IMG/VR virus record: IMGVR_UViG_3300037882_001264
Location: 38,810-102,809 of that record
DNA from: a virus
Length of the DNA: 64,000 nucleotides
Reading direction: 5' to 3' (one strand)
The first letter of the stretch is position 1, and every line of letters starts with the position of its first letter. Positions 1 through 21,035 of this stretch are shown piece after piece. The notes under the pieces are model-generated. The model worked only from the letters and a program-made list of their open reading frames with translations, searched no databases and had not been told where the DNA came from. The position numbers and the translations under genes are program-made.

Positions 1-1453
1 GCTCGCGAGGAGCGTCAGGGTGGTGGTCGTAGACGTTCTCGTAGTACTCGCGCGAGTAGGGCGCATCCTTCGGATCGTCACCGTCGTGCAGCACCTGGAT
101 CTTGTTCGACTTGCCCGGGTGGCCAGAGTCGCGCACTGAGTGGACCGTGCCAGCCTCGCCACGGAAGTCGATGACTCGATCGCCCACCTCGAACTTGGGC
201 GGGAGGTGGCCCATGCCAGCGGTGTGTGGGTTGACACAGAAGCCACAGTCAGGATCCGGGTCTTCCCACGAGTGCTGCTCATGGGCGCGCAACTGCTGCT
301 GCACCTTGGCCTTGGAGAGGTCGTCCATGTCGTCCCAGGCGTAGGCGACCTTCGCAGCGGTGGTGGAACTAGAGTCCCCAGAACTGTCGCTCGACTCGGA
401 TCCTTCCGAATCGGCGTCGCTGTCCACGTCGCTGTCGGTGAAGTCCGAGGGATCGTGTACCTGGTTGGCTACGTCGCTGGGACTTCCCGCGACCATCTGG
501 CTTCCGCAAAGAGGGCAACTCATACCTCCCCGGTAGTTGACGCCCCAGTACCTGCACCGCGAGCAGTGCGCACCGAGTTCGTCCTTCTCGTCCTGCTCCT
601 CCTTGGCCGAGTACTTCGTTGGGCCTGTGGGGTTGCTGTCGAGGAACTTGGCTTGCTCGGGGGATGCGTGCACGGCGTCATCGACGCGACTGGTGAGGTC
701 GTCAGCATTCAGCACTGCGTGAGACTTGGGATCGTGCTTCGCGAGCCAAGCGCTGTTGTCATGCTCCCAGAGGTGCCTGTCCTGGCGGACGTCCTCGCGT
801 CGATCGACCTTCTCGTTGACGTCGCGATGCACTACCTCGCCCGAGTCATCTCCGGCCTCGTGCATCGTGTGGTAGAGGTGGTGGCGCGCGACAGCCTCAC
901 TGGGGTAGTAGCCGAGGTAGTGGCCCTTCCAGGTAGCCATGTGGCCATCTGCGTGCTCGCCCGCAGGGGACGCTTGCAGTTCGGCTGCGTCAGCCTGACC
1001 CTCGTGCAGTTCACTCGGATCTAGCGGAGTCTTGATGGTGCGGGTCGAGTCGTACCAGGAGCGGATGTCTGCCTCGCTGGCTGCGACCTTCGAGCCGAGC
1101 CGGGTGTTCGGGGCGATGTCAGGCCGGTCCACGAGGATGGTCCCGAGTTCGGGGTAGTCATCGGCAGCGGTGTGGATCGAGGAGGCCTCAGCGACCTGCG
1201 CAGACGTCGAGGACACCGTCGAGATCTGGGTCTCGGTGTACTCGCCGCCACCCAGACCGCCGTCCAGGGCGACGTGGTAGACATCGCTGCCCGGGGAGAA
1301 GCCCGAGGAGATGGCCTCGATGGTCCCTGGGAAGCCGTCCAGCGTCATGACCTGCTGGCCCACGCTGTAGCCCCCAGATTCGCCTGGGGCGGCGCTGAAG
1401 GACTGGATGGCCGCAGTGTCGTGACGGCGAGCGTCGCGTCGTCCTAGCCCCAC
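1..1453 (-). CDS. Large modular hypothetical protein, probably virion/head-associated (3' end runs off the window)
   Basis: Absent from the ORF track because it is truncated. Manual translation from GTG 1453 (AGGAGG RBS) reads MGLGRRDARRHDTAAIQ...; the same frame reads ...YYENVYDHHPDAPRE at the window edge. Contains SH3-like barrels (YSVGQQVMT, FEVGDRVID), a CxxC...CPLC ribbon and a D/S-rich tract. Lies directly downstream of the portal and is preceded by the late-type motif. Confidence 0.8.
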   Translation of the reverse strand, partial: MGLGRRDARRHDTAAIQSFSAAPGESGGYSVGQQVMTLDGFPGTIEAISSGFSPGSDVYHVALDGGLGGGEYTETQISTVSSTSAQVAEASSIHTAADDYPELGTILVDRPDIAPNTRLGSKVAASEADIRSWYDSTRTIKTPLDPSELHEGQADAAELQASPAGEHADGHMATWKGHYLGYYPSEAVARHHLYHTMHEAGDDSGEVVHRDVNEKVDRREDVRQDRHLWEHDNSAWLAKHDPKSHAVLNADDLTSRVDDAVHASPEQAKFLDSNPTGPTKYSAKEEQDEKDELGAHCSRCRYWGVNYRGGMSCPLCGSQMVAGSPSDVANQVHDPSDFTDSDVDSDADSEGSESSDSSGDSSSTTAAKVAYAWDDMDDLSKAKVQQQLRAHEQHSWEDPDPDCGFCVNPHTAGMGHLPPKFEVGDRVIDFRGEAGTVHSVRDSGHPGKSNKIQVLHDGDDPKDAPYSREYYENVYDHHPDAPRE

Positions 1454-1473
1454 AGCAGCCTCCTGGTCGTTCC

Positions 1474-1510
1474 TCTACCCCTTCGGGGCCCTGGCACCTG
1501 GCAAGACAGG
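1474..1510 (-). promoter_or_regulatory. Bipartite late-type motif copy 1: CCTGTC-N20-GAAGGGGTAGA
   Basis: Intergenic, about 20 nt upstream of GTG 1453; one of six copies with fixed spacing. Confidence 0.7.
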
Positions 1511-1513
1511 CCC

Positions 1514-3634
1514 TCAGGCGTCTCCCAGGGGCACCTTGGGATCGAGAGCGAGGTGCTTGCGCATCCCGACATGCTTCGGGGTGGCGAAGGTTCCACGCGG
1601 GATGCCGTCGGGAATGGCCTCCTCCCGGATGACTTCCTGGTCCTCGTTGAGGATCGAGGTGGTCTTCAGTTCCGGCGGAGCCTCGTAGTGAGACTTGGCG
1701 ATGGTCCTCATGCGACCGGCCTGCTGGAACAGGGCTGCGGGCTTGGGCATGCTGGACCTCATCTCGTCCGAAGGAGCGATCTCCTCACCTGGCTGCTCAC
1801 CGAAGGGCTGCGTCTCCATGCCAGGCATGGGGGTGCCACCTTCCGGCGGAGTCATCATCATGTCCTCAGGCGTCGGCGCGAAGTTAGGCGTCGCAGGGTC
1901 GGGCGCAGTACCGAGCATCGGGAGCATCATCTGCTGGCCGCCCATGCCGGGCTCAGCCAGGATGACGGCACCGAAGTCTGCGGTGAGGTCGGGCGGAATC
2001 GGGAGCCCCTTGTCACGCAGGGACTCGAAGATGGCCTTACGAGTCTCCTGCTCGGCGACGGCTAGTTGCACCTGCTCATCCTTGGTTCGCTCCATCTCCT
2101 CGTCGAGATCGATGGGAGCGTTGACCAGGCGAGTCTTCATCGAGATCGGGACACCGGCTGCACGCAGGGCCTCGAAGAACTGGCGCTGCCCTTCGTCGTC
2201 GGAGAGGTTCATGGTCTTGAAGCGCAGTTCAGGGATGAGCAACTTGGGCTGCTCGACGATACGCTCCTCGCCGGTCTCCTCGTCGACTTCGAGGATCTCC
2301 TCCATGATGACGTAGCGCTTGCCGTCACGCACCTCGTAGTCGAAGTGCTCTTGTGCCTCGGCGACGATGAGTGCACGCTGACGGTAGTGGTTGGCGATCT
2401 CGTCCTGGTAGGTCGTGAGCAACTGGCTCACCAGGTCGCGGTTGAGTGCATCAGCCGCGTACGTCTCGCCAGAGGATGCGCCAGTGAGCATCGTGCGGCT
2501 CAGCCCGAAGGACTGGAGCATGCGGTCCTCAAGGCGCTCGAAGTCGGCGCCCATGTCGGGCATGTTCTCGCGGCCGAACACCGACTCCATCTGGATGCCG
2601 AAGTGGTGGACCAGCACGCGGAAGTCGGCGGCGAGAGCCTGGTCGAGCGCTTCCTCGAAGGAGGCCAAGTCATCGTCGTTAGGGATCCAGGGCACGTCGG
2701 TGCCGAGGTCTGTGGCACTGGCTCCGAGCCGGGCCAGGATGAGCGGGGTGTAGAGGCGGTCGGCGATGGCGTCCTGGGCGGCGTTGAGCATCTCCTCCTG
2801 CATGACAGCACGCATCGCACGCATGAGGATCGGGATGCCGCGCTTGTTGAACGTGTCGGCGGTGAACTTGATCTGCTGGAGCAGCACGTTGCTGACCGGC
2901 ATGAGCGCGCCGTCGGCTGCGTAGTGGATCAGTTCGGGGTAGGTGCTGACCAGGCGCTCATAGTCGTACGCCGGGGTGCGCTTGGTGATGACCTCGCGCA
3001 GCGTCTCGGGCAACTTGATGAAGAAGCGGGGCTCGCGAAGGAACGGGCTCCGCTCGACCTCGACGTCGTCGGGGTTGATCAGTTCGTCGTCTTCCCACAC
3101 ACCGAGGGCCTCGTTGAACGAGCCGAGCGGCCAGGCCTCACCGACGGTCCAGTACTCGCGGCCGATGTCGCGCAGGAACTTGTCGTAGTTCAGGCCCTCG
3201 GGGCTGAAGAAGAGATCGGTGTAGAAGTCGGTCAGTTGCTCGTCCTTGCAGACCAACTCGGAGCCGAGCAGCGGGTACTTCGAGTAGATGTCGACGCACG
3301 AGGCGATGATCGGGTGGGTCAGGTAGAGCAGTCGGCAGAAGGCGCGGATCTTCTTGATCTCATCGTGCTTCTCGACGTCGTAGGGGAGGTTGTTCTGCTT
3401 CCAGTAGAACATCGGGTCGCGAGGGCGACCAGTAGCAAACGAGAGGGACGAGCCACCGCCCCCAGCACCATTGGCGGCAGCGGTCTTGGCAGCGACCTTG
3501 CGGTTCCTGCGCATCTCGACGAGAGCGGGGTCGTCTTCTCCGGGCCCCTCGGCGCGACGGCCGAACGGCCCGCCCGTGCCCAACTTCGCGGCAATCTTGT
3601 CGAAGGCGCTGGCGCCCTCATTAGTGTCAGCCAC
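1514..3634 (-). CDS. Portal protein
   Basis: 706 aa. The RAFCRLLYLTHPIIASCVDIYSKYPL...GREYWTVGEA...GIPILMRA pattern is typical of large actinophage myovirus portals. Pro-rich C-terminal tail; head-gene context. Confidence 0.8.
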   Translation of the reverse strand: MADTNEGASAFDKIAAKLGTGGPFGRRAEGPGEDDPALVEMRRNRKVAAKTAAANGAGGGGSSLSFATGRPRDPMFYWKQNNLPYDVEKHDEIKKIRAFCRLLYLTHPIIASCVDIYSKYPLLGSELVCKDEQLTDFYTDLFFSPEGLNYDKFLRDIGREYWTVGEAWPLGSFNEALGVWEDDELINPDDVEVERSPFLREPRFFIKLPETLREVITKRTPAYDYERLVSTYPELIHYAADGALMPVSNVLLQQIKFTADTFNKRGIPILMRAMRAVMQEEMLNAAQDAIADRLYTPLILARLGASATDLGTDVPWIPNDDDLASFEEALDQALAADFRVLVHHFGIQMESVFGRENMPDMGADFERLEDRMLQSFGLSRTMLTGASSGETYAADALNRDLVSQLLTTYQDEIANHYRQRALIVAEAQEHFDYEVRDGKRYVIMEEILEVDEETGEERIVEQPKLLIPELRFKTMNLSDDEGQRQFFEALRAAGVPISMKTRLVNAPIDLDEEMERTKDEQVQLAVAEQETRKAIFESLRDKGLPIPPDLTADFGAVILAEPGMGGQQMMLPMLGTAPDPATPNFAPTPEDMMMTPPEGGTPMPGMETQPFGEQPGEEIAPSDEMRSSMPKPAALFQQAGRMRTIAKSHYEAPPELKTTSILNEDQEVIREEAIPDGIPRGTFATPKHVGMRKHLALDPKVPLGDA

Positions 3635-3932
3635 GAGACATCTCCCTGCTTGCTACATGAAAGTCCCAGGCCCGCTGGCCTAGGGCGCGAATGAGATTGC
3701 CGTACATGCGACGCTCGGGCCACTCCATGCAGCCATCCGTTGCACTCATCCTTACCAGATACGCATTGAGGTTGTCAACACAAACTCCGCACAGGGTGAC
3801 CGTCTCCCCTGTGGGCCGGGCGAGAACTTCCACTGCATCCCCGAAGACGGCGCGCATGACGGCGATGTCGAGGCGGTACGGGTAGACCACCAGAGGGGTC
3901 GGGGAGTGGAACTTCGAGCCAAGACACTGCAC
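3627..3932 (-). CDS. Small hypothetical protein with Cys/His motif (CxxC)
   Basis: 101 aa, tightly packed and overlapping the portal start; LCGVC motif. Confidence 0.6.
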   Translation of the reverse strand: MQCLGSKFHSPTPLVVYPYRLDIAVMRAVFGDAVEVLARPTGETVTLCGVCVDNLNAYLVRMSATDGCMEWPERRMYGNLIRALGQRAWDFHVASREMSRG

Positions 3933-3937
3933 TGAGA

Positions 3938-4606
3938 TCAGCCCCGCGAGTCGCGTACTGCTGCCAGCGTTTCGGGTGCACGGTTGGCTGCCTTGAGGGC
4001 CAGGTAGCGCGCGTAGTTCTCCCGGTCCAGGATCGCGCCCGTCGAGGTCTTGAGGCTGGAGCCCTTGGCGAAGGGGTTGCCATCATCCTCAGCGGGCGGC
4101 CCCTCCTGCTCCGGGCCCTCTTCATCCTCATCCGGCAGGGCATCTGGATCCATCGGGTCGCCCTCGTCGAAGGGGACGGAGCCCATGGGGGCGCCACCCT
4201 GCTGCACGCCCTGGGCTGGGTCAGCGTCAGGGACGCCGGGCACGTTGACAGGCATGCCGTCCTGGGTCTGGGGCATGGCCGGGTAGGCGGGCTGCACACG
4301 GACGGTGAAGACGGCACCACAGAAGGCGCACTCTGCTCCACCGTCAGAGCGGGAGGTCAACTGGCCGGAGCCGCAGAAGGGGCAATGGAAGACTCGGAAC
4401 TGGTCGCCACTGTCGTGGGCGACCTTGTCAATCGGGGCCTTGCTCATGCCTTGCTCCATTCGCGATGCGGTCCATGGCTGGGCGGAGACGAGACCGCCTC
4501 GGGGCGTCTCGACGCATGCTGGGCATAGCATCTTGCCGCCGACTTGCTTGCGGGGAACGTACCTATCCATCGAGCGTCCGCAGTCGTGGCACTGACGGCT
4601 AGTCAT
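3938..4606 (-). CDS. Zn-ribbon protein, head region
   Basis: CHDC/CPAC and HCPFC/CAFC pairs; ATG 4606 follows GGAGG and the late-type motif. Confidence 0.75.
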   Translation of the reverse strand: MTSRQCHDCGRSMDRYVPRKQVGGKMLCPACVETPRGGLVSAQPWTASRMEQGMSKAPIDKVAHDSGDQFRVFHCPFCGSGQLTSRSDGGAECAFCGAVFTVRVQPAYPAMPQTQDGMPVNVPGVPDADPAQGVQQGGAPMGSVPFDEGDPMDPDALPDEDEEGPEQEGPPAEDDGNPFAKGSSLKTSTGAILDRENYARYLALKAANRAPETLAAVRDSRG

Positions 4607-4617
4607 AGGCACCTCCC

Positions 4618-4655
4618 TCTACCTCTTCGGGGGCCGTTTGAGGTGGCTCGACAGG
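4618..4655 (-). promoter_or_regulatory. Bipartite late-type motif copy 2: CCTGTC-N21-GAAGAGGTAGA
   Basis: Intergenic, heading the Zn-ribbon/portal unit. Confidence 0.7.
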
Positions 4656-4657
4656 GG

Positions 4658-5554
4658 CTAGTAGGCCGAGGCGGTGAGCCGGAGGACCGGGTCCAGGGGG
4701 ACCACAGCCAGCATCGCTAGCCGGTCCTCTAGGCCGAAGGAGGCCACGAGTCGGCCGTCCCACATGGTCAGTCCTGCCGCGAACTCGATGGTGGGGCGCT
4801 CGAAGTAGAACGGCGGGGTCGTGGACAAGGCGCCACGGTGCCTCCGAACGAAGCGGTTGACGTACTGCCTCTCGCCTCGATCGTAGTGGACCTCATGGAC
4901 CAGGGCGAGCCAGCCGTCGAGCATCCGGATCGCCTGAGACCCACCCCGGAGATCGGTGGTGGGGTCCAGGAGGCGGTACGGGATCCGGCCATCCTCGTAC
5001 AGTATCCCGTCCGCTGGGTCGTAGATGGCGAGCGGGGATGCCTTGTAGATGAACCGGCCGTCCTGCATCGGCATCCAGTTCTTCTCATGCACCAACTCTG
5101 GGGCTCGCGACGGCATGATCTCTCGCTCGACCGATCGCCAGTCCTCAAGGCGATCAACAGCGATGCGGCAGACACCGTCGGCACGGTGCTCGCGCAACGT
5201 CCCGGAGACCTGCCAGTACCCATCGTCATGCCAGATAAGGCGAGCGTCCTCCATGTTCCTGACGTCGCCGTAGAGCATGGGGCCACGCACCGCGCTCTGG
5301 TCGATCTCCTGCATCCCCGTGACCCGGAGGTCATCATCGAGGTGCGCGACCCAGTTGCGTGTGTCGATGTAGCCGGGGTACTCGTACTGCCCGCGCGTGA
5401 TGACGTAGTTCGAGGAGCGGACGATGCACTTGTACCCCTCGGTCGGGGAGTAGGCGATCGAGGGGTTGAACGAGGACCAACCAGGCCGCGCCGACATCGC
5501 GATGGGCCTGGTGGTGCACCAGCCGAAGAGTTCGGCGGCGGACTGCACTTCCAT
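4658..5554 (-). CDS. Five-bladed beta-propeller glycoside hydrolase/phosphorylase-like protein
   Basis: FNPSI, MEDARL, EKNWMP, LRGGSQ and IEFAAGL motifs characteristic of GT-associated GH43/GH130-like propellers; translationally coupled to the glycosyltransferase. Confidence 0.7.
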   Translation of the reverse strand: MEVQSAAELFGWCTTRPIAMSARPGWSSFNPSIAYSPTEGYKCIVRSSNYVITRGQYEYPGYIDTRNWVAHLDDDLRVTGMQEIDQSAVRGPMLYGDVRNMEDARLIWHDDGYWQVSGTLREHRADGVCRIAVDRLEDWRSVEREIMPSRAPELVHEKNWMPMQDGRFIYKASPLAIYDPADGILYEDGRIPYRLLDPTTDLRGGSQAIRMLDGWLALVHEVHYDRGERQYVNRFVRRHRGALSTTPPFYFERPTIEFAAGLTMWDGRLVASFGLEDRLAMLAVVPLDPVLRLTASAY

Positions 5555-6603
5555 CAGAAGGCCAGGTTGGCAGTCGCCTGGTCCCGCTTGTACTGGTCGA
5601 GCGACTCATCATTCGCGAGTTGGCGGAAGATCGAGCGGGCGGTCTCCTTGTCGTCGCCCCACCAGAGGGCCACGCCGACCTCCATGAGCATGTCGAACGA
5701 CTCGATGTCACGGTGCACGAAGAGGATGTCGGTGGAGGGCTCACGGGGCGCCTGGAGCGCGAGCACTTGGGCGGCGAGCCGGGCCTTACTCTGGTTGAGG
5801 ATCTTGATCGCCTCGGTGAAGGCCTCCGCACGCGACGGCCGGTACGACCAGGCGACCAGGTAGTCCCCAAGGGAGCCCGTCAGTTTGGCGATCTGGTAGT
5901 AGGCCCAGTAGATCTCCTGGTCCCAGTGGCCGATCTCCAGGTAGCGCCGGTAGGTGCGCAGAGAGTCCTCGTTGCGCCCCAGATCCTTGTAGGTCTGGGC
6001 GAGGTAGAACGCAGTGCGTGGGTCGTTCGGGTTCCTCTCGAACTCCCCCTCCAGCAGCGCCATGTCGCGAGTGAACTTCTCCGGCCGCGTGCCACCGTCG
6101 CCGTGGTGGTAGATGGTGAAGGTCGGGTGGTTCTCCGTCTTGTACGGCACTTCAGCCGACAGAAACTCGTGAGTGACTCCGTGGTAGCGCCACGGCAGGG
6201 CTGCACTGACCAGGTAGGGCATCCACCACTCGAAGCCCCCGCCGATCTTGACCATGTAGCAGTCGGAGGTCAGTTCGCCGAGGTCGCCCGACAACTCCAT
6301 GTCGGCATCGACCAGCAGGAAGTAGGCGTTGTCCGCGTCCCAATCGAAGTCCTCAACGACCTCCTGGAGTTCGTCGAGCAGCGCGTTGCGGTTGTGGGCG
6401 AAGTTCACCCACTCTTGATTCAGCAGCGCGTACTCGACCGTGCTGTCCGCCATGAGGTCGTGGACCTTGCGCTTGGTGTTGTCAGTCGAGCCGGTGTCGA
6501 TCACCACTAGGTAGTCGGCGTAGGGGAGGGCAGAGCGTAGGCAGCGCTCGATGACCTCGGATTCGTTCTTGACGATCATGCCGACAATGACCTTGGGCAT
6601 CAT
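5554..6603 (-). CDS. Glycosyltransferase family 2 with TPR repeats
   Basis: MIVKNE..IERCL, IDTGSTDNT, FAHNRN, DAD (DxD) and GVTHE motifs, followed by TPR-like FYLAQTYKDLG. Confidence 0.9.
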   Translation of the reverse strand: MMPKVIVGMIVKNESEVIERCLRSALPYADYLVVIDTGSTDNTKRKVHDLMADSTVEYALLNQEWVNFAHNRNALLDELQEVVEDFDWDADNAYFLLVDADMELSGDLGELTSDCYMVKIGGGFEWWMPYLVSAALPWRYHGVTHEFLSAEVPYKTENHPTFTIYHHGDGGTRPEKFTRDMALLEGEFERNPNDPRTAFYLAQTYKDLGRNEDSLRTYRRYLEIGHWDQEIYWAYYQIAKLTGSLGDYLVAWSYRPSRAEAFTEAIKILNQSKARLAAQVLALQAPREPSTDILFVHRDIESFDMLMEVGVALWWGDDKETARSIFRQLANDESLDQYKRDQATANLAF

Positions 6604-6675
6604 GCGGTGGCTCTCTTCGTTAGGGGGCTACGAGGCCACGCTAGCAGAGCCAGTTGAAACGGTCCAGCCGGTGGG

Positions 6676-6906
6676 TCAGCCGCCCAGCGCAGTCAGCCGC
6701 TGCGAGATCGTGAGCCCGCTGTTGTTCACCGGCCGGGTAGGGTCGGCCACGGTACTGGGGGTACCCAGGAGGGCTGTCTGTGCGGCAGAGCCGAGTGCGG
6801 TCCACTCTGCCTCGGTGAGCGTCGCGGTCTGGCCAGCCTGGAACACGCCATTGCGGTAGAGCCACACGTTGGTCAGCCCGGCCTTGACGACTGCTTGCTT
6901 ACCCAT
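6676..6906 (-). CDS. Small hypothetical protein
   Basis: 76 aa, overlaps the upstream stop; codon usage matches neighbours. Confidence 0.65.
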   Translation of the reverse strand: MGKQAVVKAGLTNVWLYRNGVFQAGQTATLTEAEWTALGSAAQTALLGTPSTVADPTRPVNNSGLTISQRLTALGG

Positions 6907-7387
6907 CTTCGTTCACTCCAAACGCATCGCGGATCAGACAGGCTGAGGCGAAGCGGATGACCCGCTCGCCCTCTTCGTCATCGAGTTGGCTGAGCACCTC
7001 GCGAAAGGAGACGTCGTTGCGGACGCGGCTGGCGACCAGCGCAAGCGCATCCTCGGCGATGTCCTGGAACGCGGCCAGGTGGCCTGTGTCGGCCATGGCA
7101 TTGATGACCCCCGCCTCGCCAGCAGCGTCGTAGAGGTCGCGAGCGGCCACTGTCGAGATGCCAGACATCTCCAGCGAGTCATCGAGGTCGGAGTGCACCG
7201 TCATGACCGATCGTGCGGGAGCCAGGTCGTAGAGGGCCACAGGGACGATCTGACCGGCGAGCGTGCCGGTCTCCCAGGAGACGTGTGCTGAGCCCGATGC
7301 GAGCACGAGCAGGCGCCCATGGTCACCAAGGACCAGTCCCTCGTTGGCGGGACCGGTATAGGCGACCTTCTGGCCTTCCTTCAGCAT
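6899..7387 (-). CDS. Hypothetical protein (N-terminal SH3-like barrel)
   Basis: 162 aa; AGGAG RBS; packed in the operon. Confidence 0.7.
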   Translation of the reverse strand: MLKEGQKVAYTGPANEGLVLGDHGRLLVLASGSAHVSWETGTLAGQIVPVALYDLAPARSVMTVHSDLDDSLEMSGISTVAARDLYDAAGEAGVINAMADTGHLAAFQDIAEDALALVASRVRNDVSFREVLSQLDDEEGERVIRFASACLIRDAFGVNEDG

Positions 7388-7395
7388 CTGATCTC

Positions 7396-10020
7396 CTACT
7401 TCTTCGGGATCATCTTGTAGACGTCGACCATGGTCTCCGCGAAGTCCATGCCGTTCTTCAACTTCTGCTTGGGTGACCTACCCTCTTCACCCTCGCCCTT
7501 GGCGGGAGCAGTACCGGGGACGTGCATTGGGTTCTTCTTGACTTCGTCGATGACCTTCTTGGGGCCGTCTTCGATCGCCTTCTCAGTCAAGTGCGTGAGC
7601 GGGCCATCACCGCTGTGCTGCGGCGGCGCGAAGGATAGCGGGTTCCACTCAGCGACCACCGAGGGGAACCGGTCTACGGTCTCCCCCGCGAGCGCGAGTG
7701 CGGAGGTCACCGAGAGGCTCGGGTTCTCCTCGATCACACGGCTGGCCATCGCTGCGACAACCTGCTCGCGACGGCTGGCTTGCGTGCCGCTCGTGGGCTC
7801 GAAGTCGAGGTCGCTACCACCCTGCGCCTTGGGCGCGTTGCCGCCAGCGACAGCCGGGCCGCCCTCACGAGCCTCGGCCTTGGGCTGGGGGACGTTGGGG
7901 TTCTCGTTCTGCGCGACGACGTCGAAGGCACCCTCGGCGACCATCTTGCGGAGGGAGGCCAGCGCCTCGCCGCCAGTGGCATCCTCGACGGCCTTCTTGG
8001 GCTTCGGCTTGAGGCCAGACCCCTTGCACTTCGGGCAGGCCTTCGAGGCATCCCACGGGTGCGTTCCGCCACCCTTGCAGGCGCCGCAGTAAGGAGAGTC
8101 GTCGACAGCGCCGTTGTGGTGCTGCGGGCGCTTCTTCAGCCAGGCCTCCTGCTCGGGGGTCAGTTCACCGCGCAAGGGAACTCCGCCCTCCGGGAAGAGG
8201 TCCTTGGGGACGCCGCTCTTGGGGGCGCCAGGATGCGCCTGGCGGTCCCACTGCCACGAGGTGGGGTCGTCCTTCGGGTCGTAGGCGTTGGCAGCGAGAG
8301 CATCGAATGCGCCCTCGCGCACCATGGCACGGACCTGGTCGAGCGAGTAGGTCCGGTAGCGATCCATCGCGTCAGCGTGACGGTCGTAGGGGTCCGACTC
8401 GTGGGCGCGGTTCGAGCGCTCATCGTCCCCATAGGTCTCGCGATGCTCAGCATCAGAGTTCTCGGCCTCCTGCTGGCAGTCGTCACAGAGGTGGTGGCCA
8501 TAGGGGGCCTCGTCTCCGCAACCCTCGCACTCCCCAGCGGGGGGATTCGAGTGACCGTTCGCGACCTCGCTGGAGTACTGCGACATCTCGGCGTCGTTGA
8601 TCGCGGTCTTGCCAGCAGCAGAAGCCAGCCCGTGCTCGCTCGCCATCGACTTCTGGCAGTTGGTGCAGGTCTCGTTGCCGTAGGCGTTGGCGAAGCCGCA
8701 GGACTTGCACTCCTGGCGATCGTTGGCGGTCTTGACCGAGGACTCCTTCATCGGAGCACTCTTGTCCCACTGGGACTGCCGGTAGACGTCCCAGACGTCC
8801 TTGCCGTACGTCGAGATGGCCCAGGTCTTGTGGGCGTCGTAGTCGGCCTGAGTCGGCTGAGTGCTGCCGCCGTCGGGGTCCTTGCTGCGGATGTCGACGA
8901 GCGCGAAGCGACTCGACTCAGACTTCAGCGAGGCGTAGCGGTCGCTGTGGTCGGTGTGGTTGGCGCAGTACTCAGTGCCGGGCACCACGTCGTTCTCGCA
9001 GTACTCCGGGGGATTGATCGCAGTCGGGCCGTAACCCTCGCTGTGCACGATCGCATTGCACTGCGTGTCCTCATCGCCAGAGGCAGTCTTCGAGGAGGTC
9101 TTCAGGCTGACGGTTCCATCCCCACGACACGTCTGGCATCCAGTGTCGAACTTCCCGTCAGGCGAGACGACTCGACCGTGGCCGCTGCACTCAGGGCAGA
9201 TGCCCCGCTGCTCCGGCGGCGAGTAGGGCTTGCCGTTCTGGGTGAGCGTCTTGCCACTGGAGTCGAACGTCTCGTCGCCGTGGTAGCCGCTGTAACCGTA
9301 GGAGCCGTCGTCGTTGACCGTGACGTGCCGGGGCCCGTCCCAGAAGTTGTTCGGGTCGTGGACCAGCGTGTTCGGCTTGGTGGGGTGCCACACGACCGGG
9401 CCTGAACCGTGCTCGAAGCGAGCGTTGAGCGCGTCGGCATGCTCCTTCGGAGCGACCGTGTACTCGCTGCCCTCGGGGTCATCGATCGTGTGCGAGCGCC
9501 AGGTGTCGCCCCCAGCAGTTACCTGGCTACCCTCGAAAGGGAGGCGGCTCCCAGACTTGCCGAAGGGGTTGCCCGAGTCGTCGTCCGAGTCGTCGTCATC
9601 GTCATCCGAGTCATCGTCGCCCGAGTCATCCGAGTCCGAGTCATCGTCTTGATCGTCCGAACCGGAGTCGTCAGCATCGTCGCTGCTGTCGTCATCGCTG
9701 TCATCGGAGTCGTCGGAGTCCGAGTCGTCAGCGTCGCCATCCGAGTCGGTCTCCCACGGCTTTCCGCTGGCCTCCATGAGGAGCGCCCACTGCGAGCGGA
9801 GGTGGGCCTCGACGTCAGAAGGACCCACTCCAGCCGAGGCTGCGACCGTGCTGATGGCGTCCTCCGCCAGGGCAAGGCGATGCCCCAACTCGGCCTCGGT
9901 GCGAGCCAGCGCCACGTAGGGCATCAGGTCTCGCGAGGCCACGCGGGTGCTCGCCTGCGTACGGAGGGAAGCCTCTTCGTTGATGTCACGAGCGGCTTCG
10001 TCCCAGAGTGAGTACGTCAT
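7396..10020 (-). CDS. Large modular protein with multiple Zn ribbons and an acidic D/S tract
   Basis: 874 aa. Contains CPECSGHG/CQTCRGDG, CKSC/CTNC, CEGC/CDDC and CGACKGGG/CPKCKGSG, a roughly 60-aa D/S run, and an internal repeat (R.MV.EGAFD, twice). Confidence 0.8.
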   Translation of the reverse strand: MTYSLWDEAARDINEEASLRTQASTRVASRDLMPYVALARTEAELGHRLALAEDAISTVAASAGVGPSDVEAHLRSQWALLMEASGKPWETDSDGDADDSDSDDSDDSDDDSSDDADDSGSDDQDDDSDSDDSGDDDSDDDDDDSDDDSGNPFGKSGSRLPFEGSQVTAGGDTWRSHTIDDPEGSEYTVAPKEHADALNARFEHGSGPVVWHPTKPNTLVHDPNNFWDGPRHVTVNDDGSYGYSGYHGDETFDSSGKTLTQNGKPYSPPEQRGICPECSGHGRVVSPDGKFDTGCQTCRGDGTVSLKTSSKTASGDEDTQCNAIVHSEGYGPTAINPPEYCENDVVPGTEYCANHTDHSDRYASLKSESSRFALVDIRSKDPDGGSTQPTQADYDAHKTWAISTYGKDVWDVYRQSQWDKSAPMKESSVKTANDRQECKSCGFANAYGNETCTNCQKSMASEHGLASAAGKTAINDAEMSQYSSEVANGHSNPPAGECEGCGDEAPYGHHLCDDCQQEAENSDAEHRETYGDDERSNRAHESDPYDRHADAMDRYRTYSLDQVRAMVREGAFDALAANAYDPKDDPTSWQWDRQAHPGAPKSGVPKDLFPEGGVPLRGELTPEQEAWLKKRPQHHNGAVDDSPYCGACKGGGTHPWDASKACPKCKGSGLKPKPKKAVEDATGGEALASLRKMVAEGAFDVVAQNENPNVPQPKAEAREGGPAVAGGNAPKAQGGSDLDFEPTSGTQASRREQVVAAMASRVIEENPSLSVTSALALAGETVDRFPSVVAEWNPLSFAPPQHSGDGPLTHLTEKAIEDGPKKVIDEVKKNPMHVPGTAPAKGEGEEGRSPKQKLKNGMDFAETMVDVYKMIPKK

Positions 10021-10029
10021 GTCGATCCT

Positions 10030-12282
10030 TCAGTTGCCGATGGCCGCGAGGCCAGCCTGGACGCGCTTGCGGAAAGCCAGCGTGCGGTCTGCACTCTGGA
10101 GGTTCCCCGAGTCGTCGATGGGGGCTTGCAGTTGCGATGTGCCAGTCGGCTCCGTGGGAACACCGGTCGGGACGACCGGGCTACCGAAGGGCTCGGTGCC
10201 GTTGTACGGGGCAGGTCCGCCAGGAGCAGCGGCGTCTGCCTGACCGGCCAGCGGGCCCGGACGACCGGGACCGTTGATCGGGGTCTCTCCAACCGGGGAG
10301 GCGGTGCCGGAGGGGTTGGAGATATCGAGGTCGGTTGAGGTTGCAGACTCAGTCCGGATATACGGACCCTCGACGACACCTCCTTGGCTAGCCACCACTT
10401 TGCCGGAGAATGAAGCATGCAGCGAGATGCGCTCGCTGAAGTCGGGGTACTTGGCCGCCTGCACGGCGTGCGCCTGGACCCAGGCCGACTGCGCCGGAGC
10501 GTTGTCGGAGATGCCTGCGTAAAGACCGGCCTCGAACTCAGCCGAACCCTTCTTCACCAGCGGCTTGCTGGCGTTCCACTTGCTGGCGAACCGGTAGGCC
10601 TTGCGGAAGTCCTCACCCTCGCGCGTGTCAGCGGTAACGAAGAGATCCGACACCTTAGTCAGCGCGGCGGTCTTGACGGAACCAGTCATCTGCGACTGGC
10701 CATTGTCGCCGCCGAGCGAGGAAGGCACGCTCTGCGGCTGGGCCGAGGAGACCTCGCCCATACCCTTGCCGTAGCCCTCGACGTAGCCAGCCGAGAAGGG
10801 CAGGCCAGCCGAGTTGTCGGCGTAGGTGGCAGCCTGCCCCGTCTTGGCATCAGCCAGACCGGCAGCGAAGCCAGCGGTGTACGAGCCACCCTGCTGCGGC
10901 TGCGGCGTGGTCGCCGGGGAGTTGGCGACACCAGGCTGGGGCACGGCGTGCGGAGCGTCCGATGCACCGAACATGTCGGCGGTCTTCTGCGTCTCGGCAC
11001 TACCGAACGAGCGGAAGGAACTGAAGCCGCTGTTGCCACGACCATCGTCGTAGCGACCGTCATCGGTTGCGTGCATGGTGTCGCCGTAGTCGATGCGACC
11101 ATCGCGCTTGGCGGCGACATCCTTGACGAACTTGGTGATGGTGTCGTGGTTGTCCTCGCCGAAGCGGTCGACGAGTTCGTCGTGCATCGCCGGGGGCACG
11201 TTGTGCTTGCGGTAGGCGGCCAACTGGGCACGCGACACGGTGCCGTAGGACTCGTGGAAGATCGGGGCAGCAGCGGCCTCAACCTCAAGCGAGGCCTCCT
11301 TCTTGTCCTCCTCATCGTCCCCACCGAGGACGCTGCCCGCAACCTCAGCCGCAAGCGGCAGGGCGCGGACGAGGAGCGGGAGGATGGCTTCCTTCTTGTC
11401 AGCCGTCACGGGGACGGCCTTGTTAGGGGAGCCTCCGGGAACGGCCTCCGGGTCAACCTCAGGGCCACCCAGCAGCCACGGGAAGGCCACCTCGCCAGGG
11501 AGCGGGGTGGGGCGCTCAGTCACGCCATCAGGTGCGGTAGTCTGCTCGATCTGATCCAGACCAGAGGCAGCCTGACGGCTCAGAAACTCGTCCATGTTGT
11601 AGAGGTAGCCCAGCGCGACGCTGCCTTCCTGGTGGTAGTCCTGGACCTCGCCCTGGCTCTGGCCACCGCCGCCCTGCACGATCTCCTGAAGGAGAGGATT
11701 GCGCTCGGAGGTCTCGGTGCCGACAACGCCCTGGTTGATCGGGTGGACCTCATCCGCGAAGTTGTCGAAGACCTCCGGGGGCACCGGGGTGGGCTTGTTC
11801 GTGACACCATCGGGCGCAACGGTCTGATCGATCTGGTCGAGACCAGAGGCCGCCTCACGGCGGTAGAGGAAGCCGACGTAGGAGAGGAAGTCGGCCTGGG
11901 CGTCGAGCGCGTCTGCGCCGTAGACACCGGCAGTGCGGCGGGCCATGCCCTCCGCCTGCGCACCGAACTCGTGGACGTCGGCCTTGACCTCGGGGGAGAC
12001 CCGGCCGTACCAGAGGGCCGCTTCAGCCATGATCGGCTGGTGGTACTCGACACGGTCCTCATCGGAGCCGAGCCAGTCCGTCGCAGCGGTGTGCGGGACG
12101 AAGGTCGGAACCGAGGCCATGGTGGGAGTGATCACCGCGTCAGCGAGGTCGATCGCCCGAGCGTCACGGGAGGCCTGCGCCTGCTTGCGGTCAAAGTCGT
12201 CCAGTGCTTCGACGAGCGACATCTGCTCGCTGAGGCTGGACGCCTTGTTGATGGCAGCGATGATCTCTGCACGAGTGTTCAC
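10030..12282 (-). CDS. Large putative virion structural/internal protein
   Basis: Probable start GTG 12282 (GAGGAG RBS, GTGA overlap). Internal repeat AASGLDQI.QT.APDGVT..PTP occurs twice; Ala/Gly/Pro-rich. Confidence 0.75.
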   Translation of the reverse strand: MNTRAEIIAAINKASSLSEQMSLVEALDDFDRKQAQASRDARAIDLADAVITPTMASVPTFVPHTAATDWLGSDEDRVEYHQPIMAEAALWYGRVSPEVKADVHEFGAQAEGMARRTAGVYGADALDAQADFLSYVGFLYRREAASGLDQIDQTVAPDGVTNKPTPVPPEVFDNFADEVHPINQGVVGTETSERNPLLQEIVQGGGGQSQGEVQDYHQEGSVALGYLYNMDEFLSRQAASGLDQIEQTTAPDGVTERPTPLPGEVAFPWLLGGPEVDPEAVPGGSPNKAVPVTADKKEAILPLLVRALPLAAEVAGSVLGGDDEEDKKEASLEVEAAAAPIFHESYGTVSRAQLAAYRKHNVPPAMHDELVDRFGEDNHDTITKFVKDVAAKRDGRIDYGDTMHATDDGRYDDGRGNSGFSSFRSFGSAETQKTADMFGASDAPHAVPQPGVANSPATTPQPQQGGSYTAGFAAGLADAKTGQAATYADNSAGLPFSAGYVEGYGKGMGEVSSAQPQSVPSSLGGDNGQSQMTGSVKTAALTKVSDLFVTADTREGEDFRKAYRFASKWNASKPLVKKGSAEFEAGLYAGISDNAPAQSAWVQAHAVQAAKYPDFSERISLHASFSGKVVASQGGVVEGPYIRTESATSTDLDISNPSGTASPVGETPINGPGRPGPLAGQADAAAPGGPAPYNGTEPFGSPVVPTGVPTEPTGTSQLQAPIDDSGNLQSADRTLAFRKRVQAGLAAIGN

Positions 12283-13361
12283 TGGGTCTCCTCTGAGTCG
12301 AGCACATTCCGGGCTCGTTGGGCGATAGCGGATCCTTGCCGCCAATCGCGGGGCTGCAAACTGGTGAATACGCGCCTCGAACCTTGGTCCTGATCGAAGG
12401 CCTTGAGCGTTGTCGGTGATGTCGTCGCGTTCGACGCGCCACCCGTGGGGTCGACGGCAGAGCCTGCCCCCACGTTCTCAGCATAGCCACAGCGCACGCA
12501 GGAGTAGTGATCGCCCTGCCTACGGAGTGACCCGTGCGCCCCACATACAGGGCAGTTCGTCGACTGGGCCTGGTTACTTCCCCCAGGTCCATGCGGGTCG
12601 AACGGAAGTCGGTTGCTGTTCGCCCCAGGGGTCCCGTAGCCGGGGATCTCCTGCTGACGCTGGTTGTCAGGCACGACCTGGAACTGGCGGGTCCGGTCTT
12701 CGAGGTGCGTGCCCTGGTCGGTCTCGATGTAGACGTGCCGACCACTCGACTCGTGGTTGCGGACCTTCTTGACCTTCAGCGTCTGGCCCGTGGGGGTCCG
12801 GATGCTGTCGCCCGGGTTGAGGCGGTCGGCGCGCGTCTCGAACTGAGTTGCCTCAGCGGACAGGCTCGACTGCTTCTCGTGAAGGTCATCGTTGACAGTG
12901 TCGCAGGTGGGGACCCAGTCGTCCTTGTCCTCAGGCTTGTCCATTCCGCAGGCCGGGCAGTAGTCCAGGCTAGGACGCCAGTCGTGCGTGTTCTGGTTGG
13001 GGCCCGTGCGGGCAGAGCGCTTCTGGTCGAAGACCTCGTCGGGATCGTAGGTCTTGCGAGCGGGGGAGGGCGCCGAGGCGTACTGGTCGAACGGCGAGTC
13101 CTGGCTGTTCTCGTAGGCCTCTTGGCGGTCGCCGTCCACGCAGGTCGGGCACTTCGGCGAGCGGGTGTTCTTCGGGACAACCATCGGCGTGCCACAGCCG
13201 ACACACGAACCGCGCTCGGCCTTCTTGGTCATGCTGCGGCGGACCTTCTTCTGGTCCGTCGAGGGGTTACGGCGAATGCTGGAGGTGCTACCACGCATGG
13301 GCTCGCGCTGAGGCTTATCCTCAGCGGCCTGAGCCTTGCTCTTCGCACTCTCGTGCTGCAT
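12279..13361 (-). CDS. Modular Zn-ribbon protein
   Basis: 360 aa; CVGC/CPTC, YCPAC and CPVC/CVRC; GGAGG RBS; first gene after the late-type motif. Confidence 0.75.
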   Translation of the reverse strand: MQHESAKSKAQAAEDKPQREPMRGSTSSIRRNPSTDQKKVRRSMTKKAERGSCVGCGTPMVVPKNTRSPKCPTCVDGDRQEAYENSQDSPFDQYASAPSPARKTYDPDEVFDQKRSARTGPNQNTHDWRPSLDYCPACGMDKPEDKDDWVPTCDTVNDDLHEKQSSLSAEATQFETRADRLNPGDSIRTPTGQTLKVKKVRNHESSGRHVYIETDQGTHLEDRTRQFQVVPDNQRQQEIPGYGTPGANSNRLPFDPHGPGGSNQAQSTNCPVCGAHGSLRRQGDHYSCVRCGYAENVGAGSAVDPTGGASNATTSPTTLKAFDQDQGSRRVFTSLQPRDWRQGSAIAQRARNVLDSEETQ

Positions 13362-17258: not shown

Positions 17259-17497
17259 AGCAGTACCTCTATCTCTTCATCGGCTAGGTGTGATACTGAG
17301 TAGTCTTGGTCATTCGCCACGTATCGTAGCATCACGAGGGCGTCGTGTCCAGTCTTCCCTTGCTGGGTGCGCACATGGGTGATGTAGCCACGCCCCTCCT
17401 GGACGCGGATCACGCGACCGCGCTCAAGGTTTGAGGCGGGCAGGGTCCATGCAACGGGCTCGGGCTCTTCCTCGGGAGTCAGCGGAGCCTCAGACAT
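17255..17497 (-). CDS. Small beta-barrel hypothetical protein
   Basis: Probable start MSEAP at 17497, overlapping the upstream stop. Confidence 0.55.
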   Translation of the reverse strand: MSEAPLTPEEEPEPVAWTLPASNLERGRVIRVQEGRGYITHVRTQQGKTGHDALVMLRYVANDQDYSVSHLADEEIEVLL

Positions 17498-20400: not shown

Positions 20401-20981
20401 TAGTGGAGTTTCAGACCATCGAGCGAGTAGTCATCGCCGAATCCACCAAAGTGCTGGAGAACCCCGAGAGTGTAGTCATGCTTGGTCCCCTTGGGGTCGG
20501 CCACCTCATCGTGGAACGCCCCGGGGTCCTTTCCGGACTCTTCGCCGTCCTCCCAGTTGCTGTCATCCCACCCTCTGGTGTTCATCCAGGTCCGACCGTC
20601 CTCAGACAACTCAGGAGAGTGGATGGGAAACGAATCGGCCTGGCCACTGGTGTAACGCTCCTTGGCGTGTTCCATCATGGCGCTGGCAATGCCCTTGCGA
20701 CGATGGTCCTCATGAACCCACACATTGGAGATCTCACCCGGGTAGTGCCCATCGGACTCCGAGTACCTCTCCGATTCGCGAGGAGCCCAGGTCATGCTGC
20801 CCACGAGCCCACCCGAGGATGGGCTGTGAGCCTCAACAGCATGGTGGGGAGTTATGTAGTGGGGCGTTCCGTCACCCTTCCTGCGCCCCGGGAAGAAGCG
20901 GAACTTCAAGTCTGAGGGCAGATCTCCGCTGGAGCCGCCAAAGTGCTGAAGCAGGGAGGCACCATCGGGCTGCTGGCTCAC
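17490..20981 (-). CDS. Polyvalent multi-enzyme protein: GNAT, GNAT, NUDIX, Pol-beta-like nucleotidyltransferase, ART-like domain, ParB/Srx domain
   Basis: Start GTG 20981 (GGAGG RBS). Motifs: V.VHEDHRRKGIA and V.VGRGYDGKGVA (GNAT motif A); GGHIDEGEDPLAAARREFSEETG (Nudix box); IAGS...DDLD (NTase); TYHLT...GLY...EKFI (ART-like, weaker); GEGNHRVQAA...VPVRV (ParB). Confidence 0.85.
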   Translation of the reverse strand: MSQQPDGASLLQHFGGSSGDLPSDLKFRFFPGRRKGDGTPHYITPHHAVEAHSPSSGGLVGSMTWAPRESERYSESDGHYPGEISNVWVHEDHRRKGIASAMMEHAKERYTSGQADSFPIHSPELSEDGRTWMNTRGWDDSNWEDGEESGKDPGAFHDEVADPKGTKHDYTLGVLQHFGGFGDDYSLDGLKLHYEKQPTLGGEKHVIHARLPDRGAPVGSLSWVGKDGSRQYKPGEITWVQVGRGYDGKGVARKMLEHAQQLHDAGHVDTLPMHSDDLTRDGRGFVKSVSDGSDVYEPHDWDQHEVAYEDATKARPRLRKKDFQPVSILQHFAEAKSIEVAGLCLKAKDSGRILLIQRSNEDESDPARGTWEFPGGHIDEGEDPLAAARREFSEETGLKIPSDAEVTANWVSPNGIYQGFVLTIPTEDDIDLNPDHEDRHVRNPDDPKGDDIEVVAWWDIADLPDMPALRKEVKHTPWKTIKQALLRESHVLDTWQPTDRLFAPTNGSLDPRLFDGDRIRPEVRDYAMGRLAAWWDGRYSNWRTWSKVYIAGSSISEWWADKNAIQAHAADREVDPKYRLNDDLDTLIGVEYKGLVEANPQFAGMSPKMVSAHLNAELREHCNLEGVYLNVPSSEVPEWEWAGDPEGGKVRVGPWSSTFYVNPNSYDIRVIKPYAAYNLSDDEWAVRPVSEPKGHKFSPTEWYYFEGVAQQVKGALALPEPARSNRAKRIWEHIHSSRSGAFGPHGQGVFDYRNAVEKYLDQAGLWQQLVDARFPDQKTSSQDHEVTYHLTDNPHFALNPDHQPEDNALSIRPREHKGLYTAERPSDWTGTQGYVRPYVAEIHSPKGVATDERWGGEKFIPAEHFDKVKVHRVIPLDAHEREAFGEHGRIESHHGSEFDSGKPIERDGWDQPPRHHFGEGYHYDGPDVRDMTPEQHTQHYNRWKGYMTGDRGFGHNEFDDVKQTLAEPKDEDFDEEGMFIKRDQHGQKIASKVDPTTLHPNMNHYRDSGMGGQGEDRSVIGYVSTDALRKMHGNETERSGVEHYRESLRNGEGFKDPAMVIFDPKTHHAYLGEGNHRVQAAHEEGVSHVPVRVVRGSVNNPAAQHMEHAETPYRGNLGEDYWPSDIHPSHIFASDEVLSEGKEDPPRSSPRLARLRIREGRNV

Positions 20982-20990
20982 GGTCACCTC

Positions 20991-21026
20991 CACACCCTTT
21001 CGGGGCCCCCACGCTGAGAGCGACAG
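20991..21026 (-). promoter_or_regulatory. Bipartite late-type motif copy 4 (variant): CTGTC-N20-GAAAGGGTGTG
   Basis: Immediately upstream of the RBS of the polyvalent gene. Confidence 0.6.
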
Positions 21027-21035
21027 CAATGACTG

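Follow-up and report, generated by a model that had tools for sequence, protein, structure and literature searches.

Herpesvirus assemblin (MEROPS S21) lies at the N-terminus of a longer precursor whose C-terminal partner is a scaffold; a release site follows the protease domain, and the release and maturation consensus is reportedly (V/L/I)-x-A followed by S, with the cut between the A and the S. The phage-encoded proteases T4 gp21, phiKZ gp175 and SPN3US gp245 have the same fold; they cut themselves, and they act at a short degenerate motif in portal, internal and ejection proteins. In the T4 gp21 / phiKZ gp175 type this motif ends in Glu (L/I-x-E or S/A/G-x-E), and the T4 gp21 type of protease is small and free-standing. 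SPN3US gp245 cuts after A-x-E, taking off a C-terminal propeptide of its own and a long one of the portal (PMC10052503). Multi-domain late proteins with a processing peptidase are also known as the polyvalent proteins of phages and conjugative elements (Iyer et al., 2017). That account predicts that the peptidase domains release the units, calls assemblin-like peptidases rare and always C-terminal and, in the passages searched, describes no junction motif (PMC5512222).

Here we analyzed 64,000 nucleotides (the window) of the IMG/VR record IMGVR_UViG_3300037882_001264. The first 13 kb form the portal side of the head block in an uncultured actinophage of high G+C content, which is a distant relative of the Bxz1/Myrna (cluster C) mycobacteriophages; its source environment was soil. 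The region gave no megablast match to cultured phages, the 874-, 750-, 298-, 162- and 360-aa proteins matched nothing in Pfam, PHROG or NCBIfam, and the same three collections recognized zero enzyme domains in the 874-, 750- and 949-aa proteins. Since the protease gene is absent from the phage's own contig (~70% complete), as is the major capsid gene, we infer the protease of this phage from its relatives. The motif enriched in the head proteins does not end in Glu; it ends in Ala, with a basic residue two positions before, and its core reads [K/R/H]-T-A with S, A or G next, V or I being minor variants in the middle. We consider it probable, though far from certain, that, as a whole explanation, the phage's own capsid-maturation serine protease recognizes this motif and cuts there.

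A sequence-only reading had proposed a broader signal, [KRH][TVEQ]A, at module boundaries in several late-type proteins, and all of the strings it quoted are present in the genes it named (translations checked): the 874-aa protein has SSKTASG, SVKTAND, AGKTAIN and SQVTAGG, the 750-aa protein RREAASG, SRQAASG, KKEAILP, KKEASLE, QKTADMF, SVKTAAL and PHTAATD, protein 2-1453 SIHTAAD, GSKVAAS, AAKVAYA and PHTAGM, the portal RKVAAKTAA, and protein 3938-4612 DKVAHDS. Counted against shuffles, this broad motif occurs 27 times where 12.4 are expected in region 1-13361 and 50 times where 41.6 are expected in the remainder of the window. At the middle position, however, the proposal stands in part: measured against the reversed tripeptide in the cargo of 120 of the relatives' fusion proteins, T is enriched 8.1-fold and V or I 2.5-fold, whereas E and Q reach 1.1-fold. 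Because E and Q are not enriched there, REA, RQA and KEA are probably a different signal from basic-T-A. The residue after the motif Ala is also selective in the fusion cargo (Ser 4.7-fold, Ala 2.5-fold enriched).

For the narrower [KRH]TA, with its five same-composition permutations as the control, the ten proteins of 1-13361 hold 11 occurrences where the permutations average 1.8 (binomial P 1e-4), whereas the 23,000 residues elsewhere on the contig hold 14, the permutation average there being 15.4 (Fisher P 4e-4 for the region against the rest). KTA alone is not exceptional in the phage's own genome, with 6 occurrences against 1.4 and a rank of 14th among 8000 tripeptides. The same pattern of over-representation in head proteins, and not in the other proteins tested, holds in three genomes. 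In the complete relative G001, [KRH]TA occurs 18 times against 6.0 in the head block and 8 times against 1.8 in a second block of large proteins, and the other 36,186 residues hold 33 against 24.4. In Mycobacterium phage Flabslab, which has been cultured, gp83, gp84, the portal, gp91 and gp92 together hold 15 against 2.0 (P 1e-6), and the tail and baseplate proteins are depleted (2 against 6.0). A composition artefact was considered and ruled out by permutation, reversal and non-head controls. The excess in the head block of this genome is genuine, but narrower than the pattern first proposed.

A score matrix trained solely on foreign cargo (i.e., the relatives' fusion proteins) was then run on the phage's own contig. 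Its four best sites all fell in the head block (874-aa protein, 750-aa protein and portal), as did 7 of the top nine. The features concerned, in window coordinates, are:

1..1453, minus strand: the first 484 of the 949 residues of an internal head protein (whole-contig ORF call)
218..226, minus strand: HTA, residues 410-412 of the 949-aa protein, a weaker candidate site
1166..1174, minus strand: HTA (SSI-HTA-ADDYPEL), residues 94-96 of the 949-aa protein (matrix score 11.7)
1514..3634, minus strand: portal protein (phrog_2833, E 2e-154)
3479..3487, minus strand: KTA, portal residues 50-52 (matrix score 12.8)
3938..4612, minus strand: 224-aa zinc-ribbon protein (homologue alignment)
7396..10020, minus strand: 874-aa protein, with a conserved N-terminal ~90 residues, an acidic tract and four CxxC..CxxC ribbons
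8602..8610, minus strand: KTA (AAG-KTA-IN), residues 471-473 of the 874-aa protein, 15 residues past ribbon 2
8725..8733, minus strand: KTA (SSV-KTA-ND), residues 430-432 of the 874-aa protein, 5 residues ahead of ribbon 2
9082..9090, minus strand: KTA (TSS-KTA-SG), residues 311-313 of the 874-aa protein (matrix score 15.7)
9562-9747, minus strand: Asp/Ser acidic tract of the 874-aa protein
10030..12282, minus strand: 750-aa protein, its start GTG at 12282 placed from the homologue L004
10666..10674, minus strand: KTA (GSV-KTA-ALT) of the 750-aa protein (matrix score 14.7)
10978..10986, minus strand: KTA (QKTADMFG) of the 750-aa protein (alignment of homologues)
11548..11859, minus strand: two R-[EQ]-AASGLDQI repeat heads of the 750-aa protein (11830-11859 and 11548-11577), a conserved repeat
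12085..12093, minus strand: HTA (HTAATDW) of the 750-aa protein (alignment of homologues)

The 874-aa family keeps its N-terminal ~90 residues and carries variable cargo after them. The site at 9082..9090, 13 residues past ribbon 1, is the top-scoring site of the contig, and the pair at 8725..8733 and 8602..8610 brackets a ~40-residue zinc-ribbon module. The 750-aa protein, aligned with nine homologues, is conserved in its N- and C-terminal parts and variable in the middle. Its KTA at 10666..10674, the second-best score of the contig, lies in a variable linker; the QKTADMFG column is [K/H]-x-A-D in every close homologue, with T, R, Q or K as x; and HTAATDW keeps H-T-A in 9 of 10 aligned homologues, L004 having STAETDW. 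Both SGLDQI copies of this protein directly follow R-x-A-A, as had been reported; because the residue preceding AASGLDQI is not always basic among homologues, R-[EQ]-AASGLDQI is probably a separate conserved element and not the basic-T-A signal.

The gene of the 949-aa protein, a homologue of Flabslab gp91 / phrog_2940 (tblastn, PHROG), runs past the window start, and its relatives show H-L-A-S in the column of the HTA at 1166..1174. In the portal, which shares about 42% identity with the portals of Myrna and Rhodococcus phage E3, the KTA sits in a basic stretch followed by a Gly-rich linker and then the conserved body (FATGRPRD). Among 11 aligned portals, basic-T-A occupies this column in the phage's own portal and in L003, L004, L007 and L020, and is shifted in L011 and L012, which makes the KTA a candidate for the end of a leader peptide; a relative's portal found no solved homologue in the PDB. 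In the 224-aa protein, K-V-A-HDSG (4409-4426, minus strand) marks the junction at which a variable N-terminal part gives way to the conserved ribbon domain. Homologues have KVA, KTA, KQA or VQA in this column, and those of L009 and L020 carry ~400-aa N-terminal extensions that end at the K-x-A junction.

A neighboring 1179-aa multi-enzyme protein (GNAT + NUDIX) is the clearest polyprotein candidate nearby. It holds zero [KRH]TA, and no direct homology to the relatives' protease fusions was found beyond the NUDIX domain. Only this protein and those fusions combine at least two unrelated effector or enzyme domains; the 874-, 750- and 949-aa proteins do not.

The prohead protease was found in all four complete relatives and in Flabslab as gp92, with a match to phrog_18299. 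In the relatives it is the N-terminal domain of giant, variable fusion proteins, a family of 2625 representative clusters, in which NUDIX, GNAT, ParB-like and other domains are combined with the protease in a late/head gene context. A first model of the domain, built from six sequences, was poor (pLDDT 52) and its Foldseek matches were meaningless. A relative's protease-domain model (pLDDT 81) superimposes on T4 gp21 with Z 10.8 (rmsd 2.7 over 127 residues) and on eight herpesvirus proteases, VZV, PRV, HSV and HCMV among them, with Z 7-9.3 (rmsd about 3 Å over 110-126 residues), and the best 34 structural matches all belong to the T4 gp21 / herpesvirus protease fold family. On this modeled structure, the relatives' protease is shown to have the fold of T4 gp21 and the herpesvirus proteases. 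Residues H81 and S139 are invariant and, in a weak profile alignment (hhalign E 0.06-0.11), align with the FFNH and MSVGF stretches of HK97 gp4 (MEROPS S78), which we take to hold the catalytic His65 and Ser114; unlike HK97 gp4, the clade's domain has a CxxC...CxH insert. The domain gave no match to Pfam Peptidase_S78 at E 0.01, and a PDB sequence search returned only noise.

Behind this domain the motif recurs in the relatives, Bxz1-type mycobacteriophages included. Of 7 aligned fusions, 5 have [KR]TA in the same column, and of 120 fusions, 70 have a site no more than 60 residues past the domain, usually at +13 to +20; the consensus is GL-K-AAS-KTA. A second fusion set has the post-protease site in 38 of 107 proteins, and overall it is absent or altered in about 40-65% of fusions. 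The stretch that carries it falls below pLDDT 50 in the model, and the fusion sequences diverge completely beyond it. These positions suggest that the motif also marks the protease's own maturation site in the relatives. Alternatively, the motif may be a docking or targeting peptide that is bound and not cut, recruiting proteins to the protease, scaffold or portal, or retaining them in the capsid. Enrichment, restriction to the head block and conservation would fit binding equally well, and some sites stand in conserved, possibly structural contexts (HTAATDW; the K-x-A-HDSG that starts a folded ribbon domain). Yet release sites are usually placed just as here, in a low-confidence linker directly behind a protease domain with complete divergence after it, the preference for Ala at the putative P1 and Ser/Ala at the putative P1' matches the known specificity of the assemblin fold, and docking would not need many copies per protein at module borders; we judge this reading unlikely.

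The proposal that the motif lies at module boundaries is supported by its position at the edges of homology blocks in the shuffled cargo proteins of the relatives. The cargo of 120 fusions holds 243 motifs against 67 expected, with the protease domain itself at 1.06-fold, and 107 further proteins replicated this (193 against 64.8), an over-representation of 3- to 3.6-fold; KTA is the top Cys-free tripeptide in an unbiased count. Relative to the motif, the starts of BLAST blocks fall at -3..+2 and their ends at +2..+4, with a frequency of about 0.2, against 0.05-0.1 at control sites, though this border test is partly dependent, as any short motif held in common could make block ends accumulate. 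BLAST coverage showed no dip at motif sites, a crude hydrophobicity proxy showed no clear linker signature there, and for domain avoidance home-made NUDIX and GNAT profiles yielded just 21 and 13 domains, too few.

The motif might be a conserved, recombination-tolerant joint for module shuffling between phages with no role in processing, as homology blocks begin and stop at it and the hypervariable cargo has a median spacing of 174 residues between sites, about domain size. Recombination acts on DNA, however, and codon use at the sites is ordinary and varied and three different basic residues are used. The motif also occurs in places that are not shuffled (e.g., the portal leader), and its depletion in tail proteins points to head-linked selection, so that a joint alone seems decidedly improbable. 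A DNA-level motif was separately ruled out, the site codons following normal usage, and sequence comparison supports a signal that acts at the protein level.

The motif might also serve some other activity: for example, a Ser/Thr kinase of the host or the phage could phosphorylate its Thr, or a host protease could cut there once the proteins have been ejected. The strong preference for Thr in the middle would fit, and Actinobacteria have many Ser/Thr kinases. A phospho-acceptor would forbid the replacement of T by V and I, and by L, Q, R and K in conserved columns, and the link to the protease-domain border is specific; we give such activities very little weight. Finally, the excess could stem from chance, composition or common descent (Ala-rich proteins at high G+C, homologous positions recounted), a reading that is scarcely credible. 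In its favor, the motif was chosen with the data in view, the rank of KTA alone is modest and several counted sites are homologous (HTAATDW six times). The controls, however, already refute it to a large extent: neither same-composition permutations nor reversed tripeptides are enriched, no excess is seen in the non-head proteins of these genomes, 214 of 241 scored cargo sites have unique 15-residue contexts, a second protein set replicated the result, and the foreign-trained matrix ranks the window's sites first.

Under the favored reading, cleavage by the phage's own maturation protease, the carriers of the signal are the long, poorly conserved 949-, 874- and 750-aa proteins, the portal leader and the small zinc-ribbon protein. 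The protease, probably a serine protease with the T4 gp21 / HK97 gp4 / herpesvirus-assemblin fold, would be synthesized at the N-terminus of a giant variable fusion and act inside the procapsid, where it would free itself at the AAS-KTA behind its own domain, trim about 50 residues off the portal and cut the internal head proteins to a few pieces of roughly 40-400 residues, which would exit the shell or remain for ejection with the DNA. Because assemblin cuts between A and S, we place the putative cut, by analogy, between the motif Ala and the next small residue; both cleavage at the motif and packaging of these proteins are what we infer from the patterns above. Processing into many mini-proteins, as first envisaged, does not fit the site density of ~1 per 250-400 residues, from which we expect few products, ~3-5 fragments per protein. 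In the literature we found no proteomic or N-terminal data on this clade, and no described cut-site motif for cluster C or Streptomyces phages; the relatives' capsid protein matches phage G gp27, and the phage G paper makes no statement on cut sites.

Set against the described systems, the scheme would combine familiar parts in a different arrangement. The fold is that of T4 gp21, phiKZ gp175 and SPN3US gp245, and a short degenerate motif likewise recurs in portal and internal proteins, but the T4 gp21 type cuts x-x-Glu where the putative signal here is basic-Thr-Ala, and its small, free-standing protease contrasts with the first domain of a giant fusion. Assemblin shares the N-terminal position in a longer precursor, the release site (putative in this clade) behind the domain, and Ala then Ser or Ala at the putative scissile position; it differs in having hydrophobic V/L/I, in place of K, R or H, two residues before the Ala, and in having a scaffold as its C-terminal partner where this clade, in bacterial viruses, has variable enzyme or zinc-ribbon cargo. 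The relatives' fusions resemble polyvalent proteins, except that their assemblin-like domain is N-terminal and very common, unlike what Iyer et al. (2017) describe.

It is possible, though we lean somewhat against it, that an actinophage clade of at least 2600 representative clusters, including the lab-tractable Bxz1-type mycobacteriophages, uses protease-first cargo polyproteins together with a basic-Thr-Ala code, followed by Ser/Ala, as both cut site and module joint. Were the code clade-wide, it would also provide a joint for swapping modules (zinc ribbons, NUDIX, GNAT, ParB-like and others), and with it an arsenal of small capsid-delivered proteins that can evolve. If the tag is a cut site, capsid-loaded proteins and their cutting could be read from the sequence of large actinophages, among them the much-used Bxz1-type mycobacteriophages and phages of Streptomyces-like hosts; the tag would represent a new specificity for a capsid-protease fold common to tailed phages and herpesviruses, and explain how very long, fast-evolving cargo proteins become separate units.

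All genes of the window, which spans bases 38810-102809 of a 102,809-base IMG/VR virus contig (completeness ~70%), are carried on the minus strand. Read downstream, they run as follows, with the gene order of the head block kept in 18 related IMG/VR loci.

Gene order of the window, in downstream reading
59-64 kb, minus: baseplate genes
24-59 kb, minus: replication block
21200-23239, minus: large terminase (weak match)
17490-21029, minus: 1179-aa GNAT+NUDIX protein, between the terminase match and the head block
Head block, first gene, minus: 360-aa protein
10030-12282, minus: second, 750-aa protein
7396-10020, minus: third, 874-aa protein
Fourth, minus: 162-aa protein
5554-6603, minus: fifth, family-2 glycosyltransferase with TPR-like repeats
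Sixth, minus: 298-aa protein
3938-4612, minus: seventh, 224-aa zinc-ribbon protein
Eighth, minus: 101-aa protein
1514-3634, minus: ninth, portal (phrog_2833, E 2e-154)
Tenth, minus: 949-aa protein, only its first 484 residues inside the window

The portal shares ~42% identity with portals of cluster C mycobacteriophages and Rhodococcus phage E3, and the 949-aa protein is related to gp91 of Mycobacterium phage Flabslab, a protein with LysM plus transglycosylase matches. All relatives conserve the small zinc-ribbon protein beside the portal; in two related loci (L009 and L020) it makes up the C-terminal portion of a ~635-aa protein. The glycosyltransferase sits within the head block, with a weak counterpart at the same place in locus L003 only.

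The sequence-only reading had proposed [KRH][TVEQ]A as a signal at which head proteins are cut. Its quoted peptides were all found in the translated sequence, and its motif occurs 27 times in the head region versus 12.4 expected from shuffles (rest of the window: 50 versus 41.6). A cleaner control than shuffling is to set [KRH]TA against the five permutations of equal composition. By this measure, the ten region proteins (4,794 residues) hold 11 sites against a permutation mean of 1.8, and the other 23,001 contig residues hold 14 against 15.4 (region versus rest, Fisher P 4e-4); one of the 11, in the glycosyltransferase, is probably due to chance. KTA alone (6 versus 1.4) is unremarkable among all tripeptides within this genome, and the case therefore rests on relatives.

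Across the related loci, KTA, HTA and RTA occur 25, 24 and 48 times (each permutation, 5-20), many of them at non-homologous positions. In the complete relative genome G001, counts were 18 versus 6.0 in the head block, 8 versus 1.8 in a second block of two large proteins (688 and 1625 aa; G001:C1:12189-19277) that lies far from that head block, and 33 versus 24.4 in the remaining 36,186 residues. In cultured Flabslab, gp83, gp84, the portal, gp91 and gp92 together hold 15 sites versus 2.0 (P 1e-6), and the tail, baseplate and other proteins (11,624 residues) are depleted (2 versus 6.0). The sites show ordinary codon use, which places the signal at the protein level. Two terminal occurrences were also seen: a 241-aa protein outside the window (G000:C1:32819-33544, minus) terminates exactly in E-K-T-A-stop, and KTA falls among the first seven residues of two small proteins, which come from this contig and from G001, respectively.

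Neither the protease gene nor the major capsid gene is present on this ~70%-complete contig. In Flabslab, the 1369-aa gp92, annotated as hypothetical, matches the head-maturation protease profile phrog_18299 at residues 61-211. Giant ORFs (963-3116 residues) open with the same domain in each of the four complete relatives as well as in loci L004 and L017, and NUDIX and GNAT domains follow it there. Modeled from a 52-sequence alignment (mean pLDDT 81), it is closest among solved structures to T4 gp21 (Z 10.8, rmsd 2.7 Å over 127 residues) and also matches eight herpesvirus proteases (Z 7-9.3); this fold family accounts for all of the first 34 rows of the structure search. His81 and Ser139 are invariant, and in a weak alignment they fall on the FFNH and MSVGF segments of HK97 gp4. 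Database searches returned 583 protease fusions at E 1e-10 or better and 2625 representative clusters at E 1e-3 or better. Their source names indicate Streptomyces and Kitasatospora assemblies; fusions P0072, P0090, P0115 and P0124 come from NCBI assemblies of these genera, on contigs of ~150-155 kb, which is a hint at host range and suggests that phages of this kind accompany cultured strains.

The variable remainder, or cargo, of 120 fusions (113,460 residues) holds 243 [KRH]TA against a permutation mean of 67 and 30 for the reversed tripeptide, and this was replicated in a further 107 proteins with no overlap (193 versus 64.8); the protease domain itself showed no excess in the 120 fusions (1.06x). 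KTA is the top-ranked Cys-free tripeptide in an unbiased count. Relative to the reversed tripeptide, the middle position favors T (8.1), V (2.5) and I (2.5), with E and Q not favored (1.1). Ser (4.7x) and Ala (2.5x) are enriched after the motif Ala, and Ser is favored two and three positions upstream of the basic residue. The indel check proposed earlier, run on fusion cargo, found BLAST homology blocks starting at -3 to +2 and ending at +2 to +4 of the motif more often (~0.2) than at control tripeptides (0.05-0.1), though block ends can be drawn to any shared short motif; 80% of motif sites, versus 56% of control sites, have an HSP end no more than 10 residues away. Crude proxies (hydrophobicity, BLAST coverage) gave no linker signature around the sites. 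Median inter-site spacing is 174 residues.

Right after the protease domain stands PADPTA-F-GVD--GL-K-AAS-KTA, beyond which fusions diverge completely; this stretch has pLDDT below 50 in the model. The aligned column holds [KR]TA in 5/7 fusions, and [KR]TA lies within 60 residues of the domain in 70/120, mostly at +13 to +20, with KVA, KMA or KKA at this position in others. The site is not universal (38/107 in the second set). The best window sites (TSS-KTA-SG, SSV-KTA-ND, GSV-KTA-AL, AAG-KTA-IN) resemble this consensus.

A position matrix built from foreign cargo sites only and scanned across all proteins of this contig ranked 874:311, 750:558 (771-residue numbering), 874:471 and portal:50 highest, and placed seven of its top nine in the 874-, 750- and 949-aa proteins and the portal. 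The three KTA sites of the 874-aa protein adjoin CxxC..CxxC ribbons, two bracketing a ~40-residue ribbon module, and the low-G+C L003 homologue of this protein carries five sites of the SS-R-[KR]-TA type. After the conserved N-terminal ~90 residues of the 874-aa protein comes a 60-residue Asp/Ser acidic tract (9562-9747, minus); since a comparable tract occupies this position in the L020 and L009 homologues, it is a conserved feature, not simply noise. In the 750-aa family, HTAATDW keeps H-T-A in 9/10 aligned sequences, [K/H]-x-A-D-M-F/W is conserved, and zinc-ribbon modules inserted in L003, L004 and L009 have KTA or RTA flanks. The portal site falls in a conserved basic stretch ~15 residues upstream of the conserved body. 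In the 224-aa family the conserved domain begins at K-[V/T/Q]-A-HDSG, which is also where the L009 and L020 proteins end their long N-terminal extensions. The R-[EQ]-AASGLDQI repeats are real, with the preceding residue not always basic in homologues, and are treated as a separate element because E and Q show no general enrichment.

The 1179-aa multi-enzyme neighbor has no [KRH]TA; it contains instead three copies of another recurring motif, LLQHF[AG], or S-[LI]-[LI]-Q-H-F-[AG] in its general form. Three matches to the looser [LIVMF][LIVMF]Q[HFAY]F lie in the L004 protease fusion (L004:17634-21500), two of them in strict form, and the looser form is found 20 times in 12/120 fusions versus once for the reversed pattern. 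HTA, KTS or KTA directly precedes the second motif in several proteins, and the motif may belong to a composite junction.

The number of sites predicts ~3-5 fragments per window protein, rather than the many mini-proteins first envisaged. The phiKZ/SPN3US protease cuts the portal, the ejection proteins and its own chain at A-x-E sites (PMC10052503), whereas the putative specificity here is basic-Thr-Ala; its Ala then Ser/Ala preference recalls herpesvirus assemblin. The literature searched on cut-site motifs in cluster C or Streptomyces phages yielded no published description of such a signal. The relatives' fusions fit the polyvalent-protein concept, although the paper behind it describes assemblin-like peptidases as rare and C-terminal (PMC5512222). 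The most economical reading, from sequence pattern and analogy, is that the motif represents the cleavage code of the clade's assemblin-fold capsid protease and its occurrences candidate cut sites; the protease would then cut at basic-Thr-Ala, working as in T4 and phiKZ/SPN3US.
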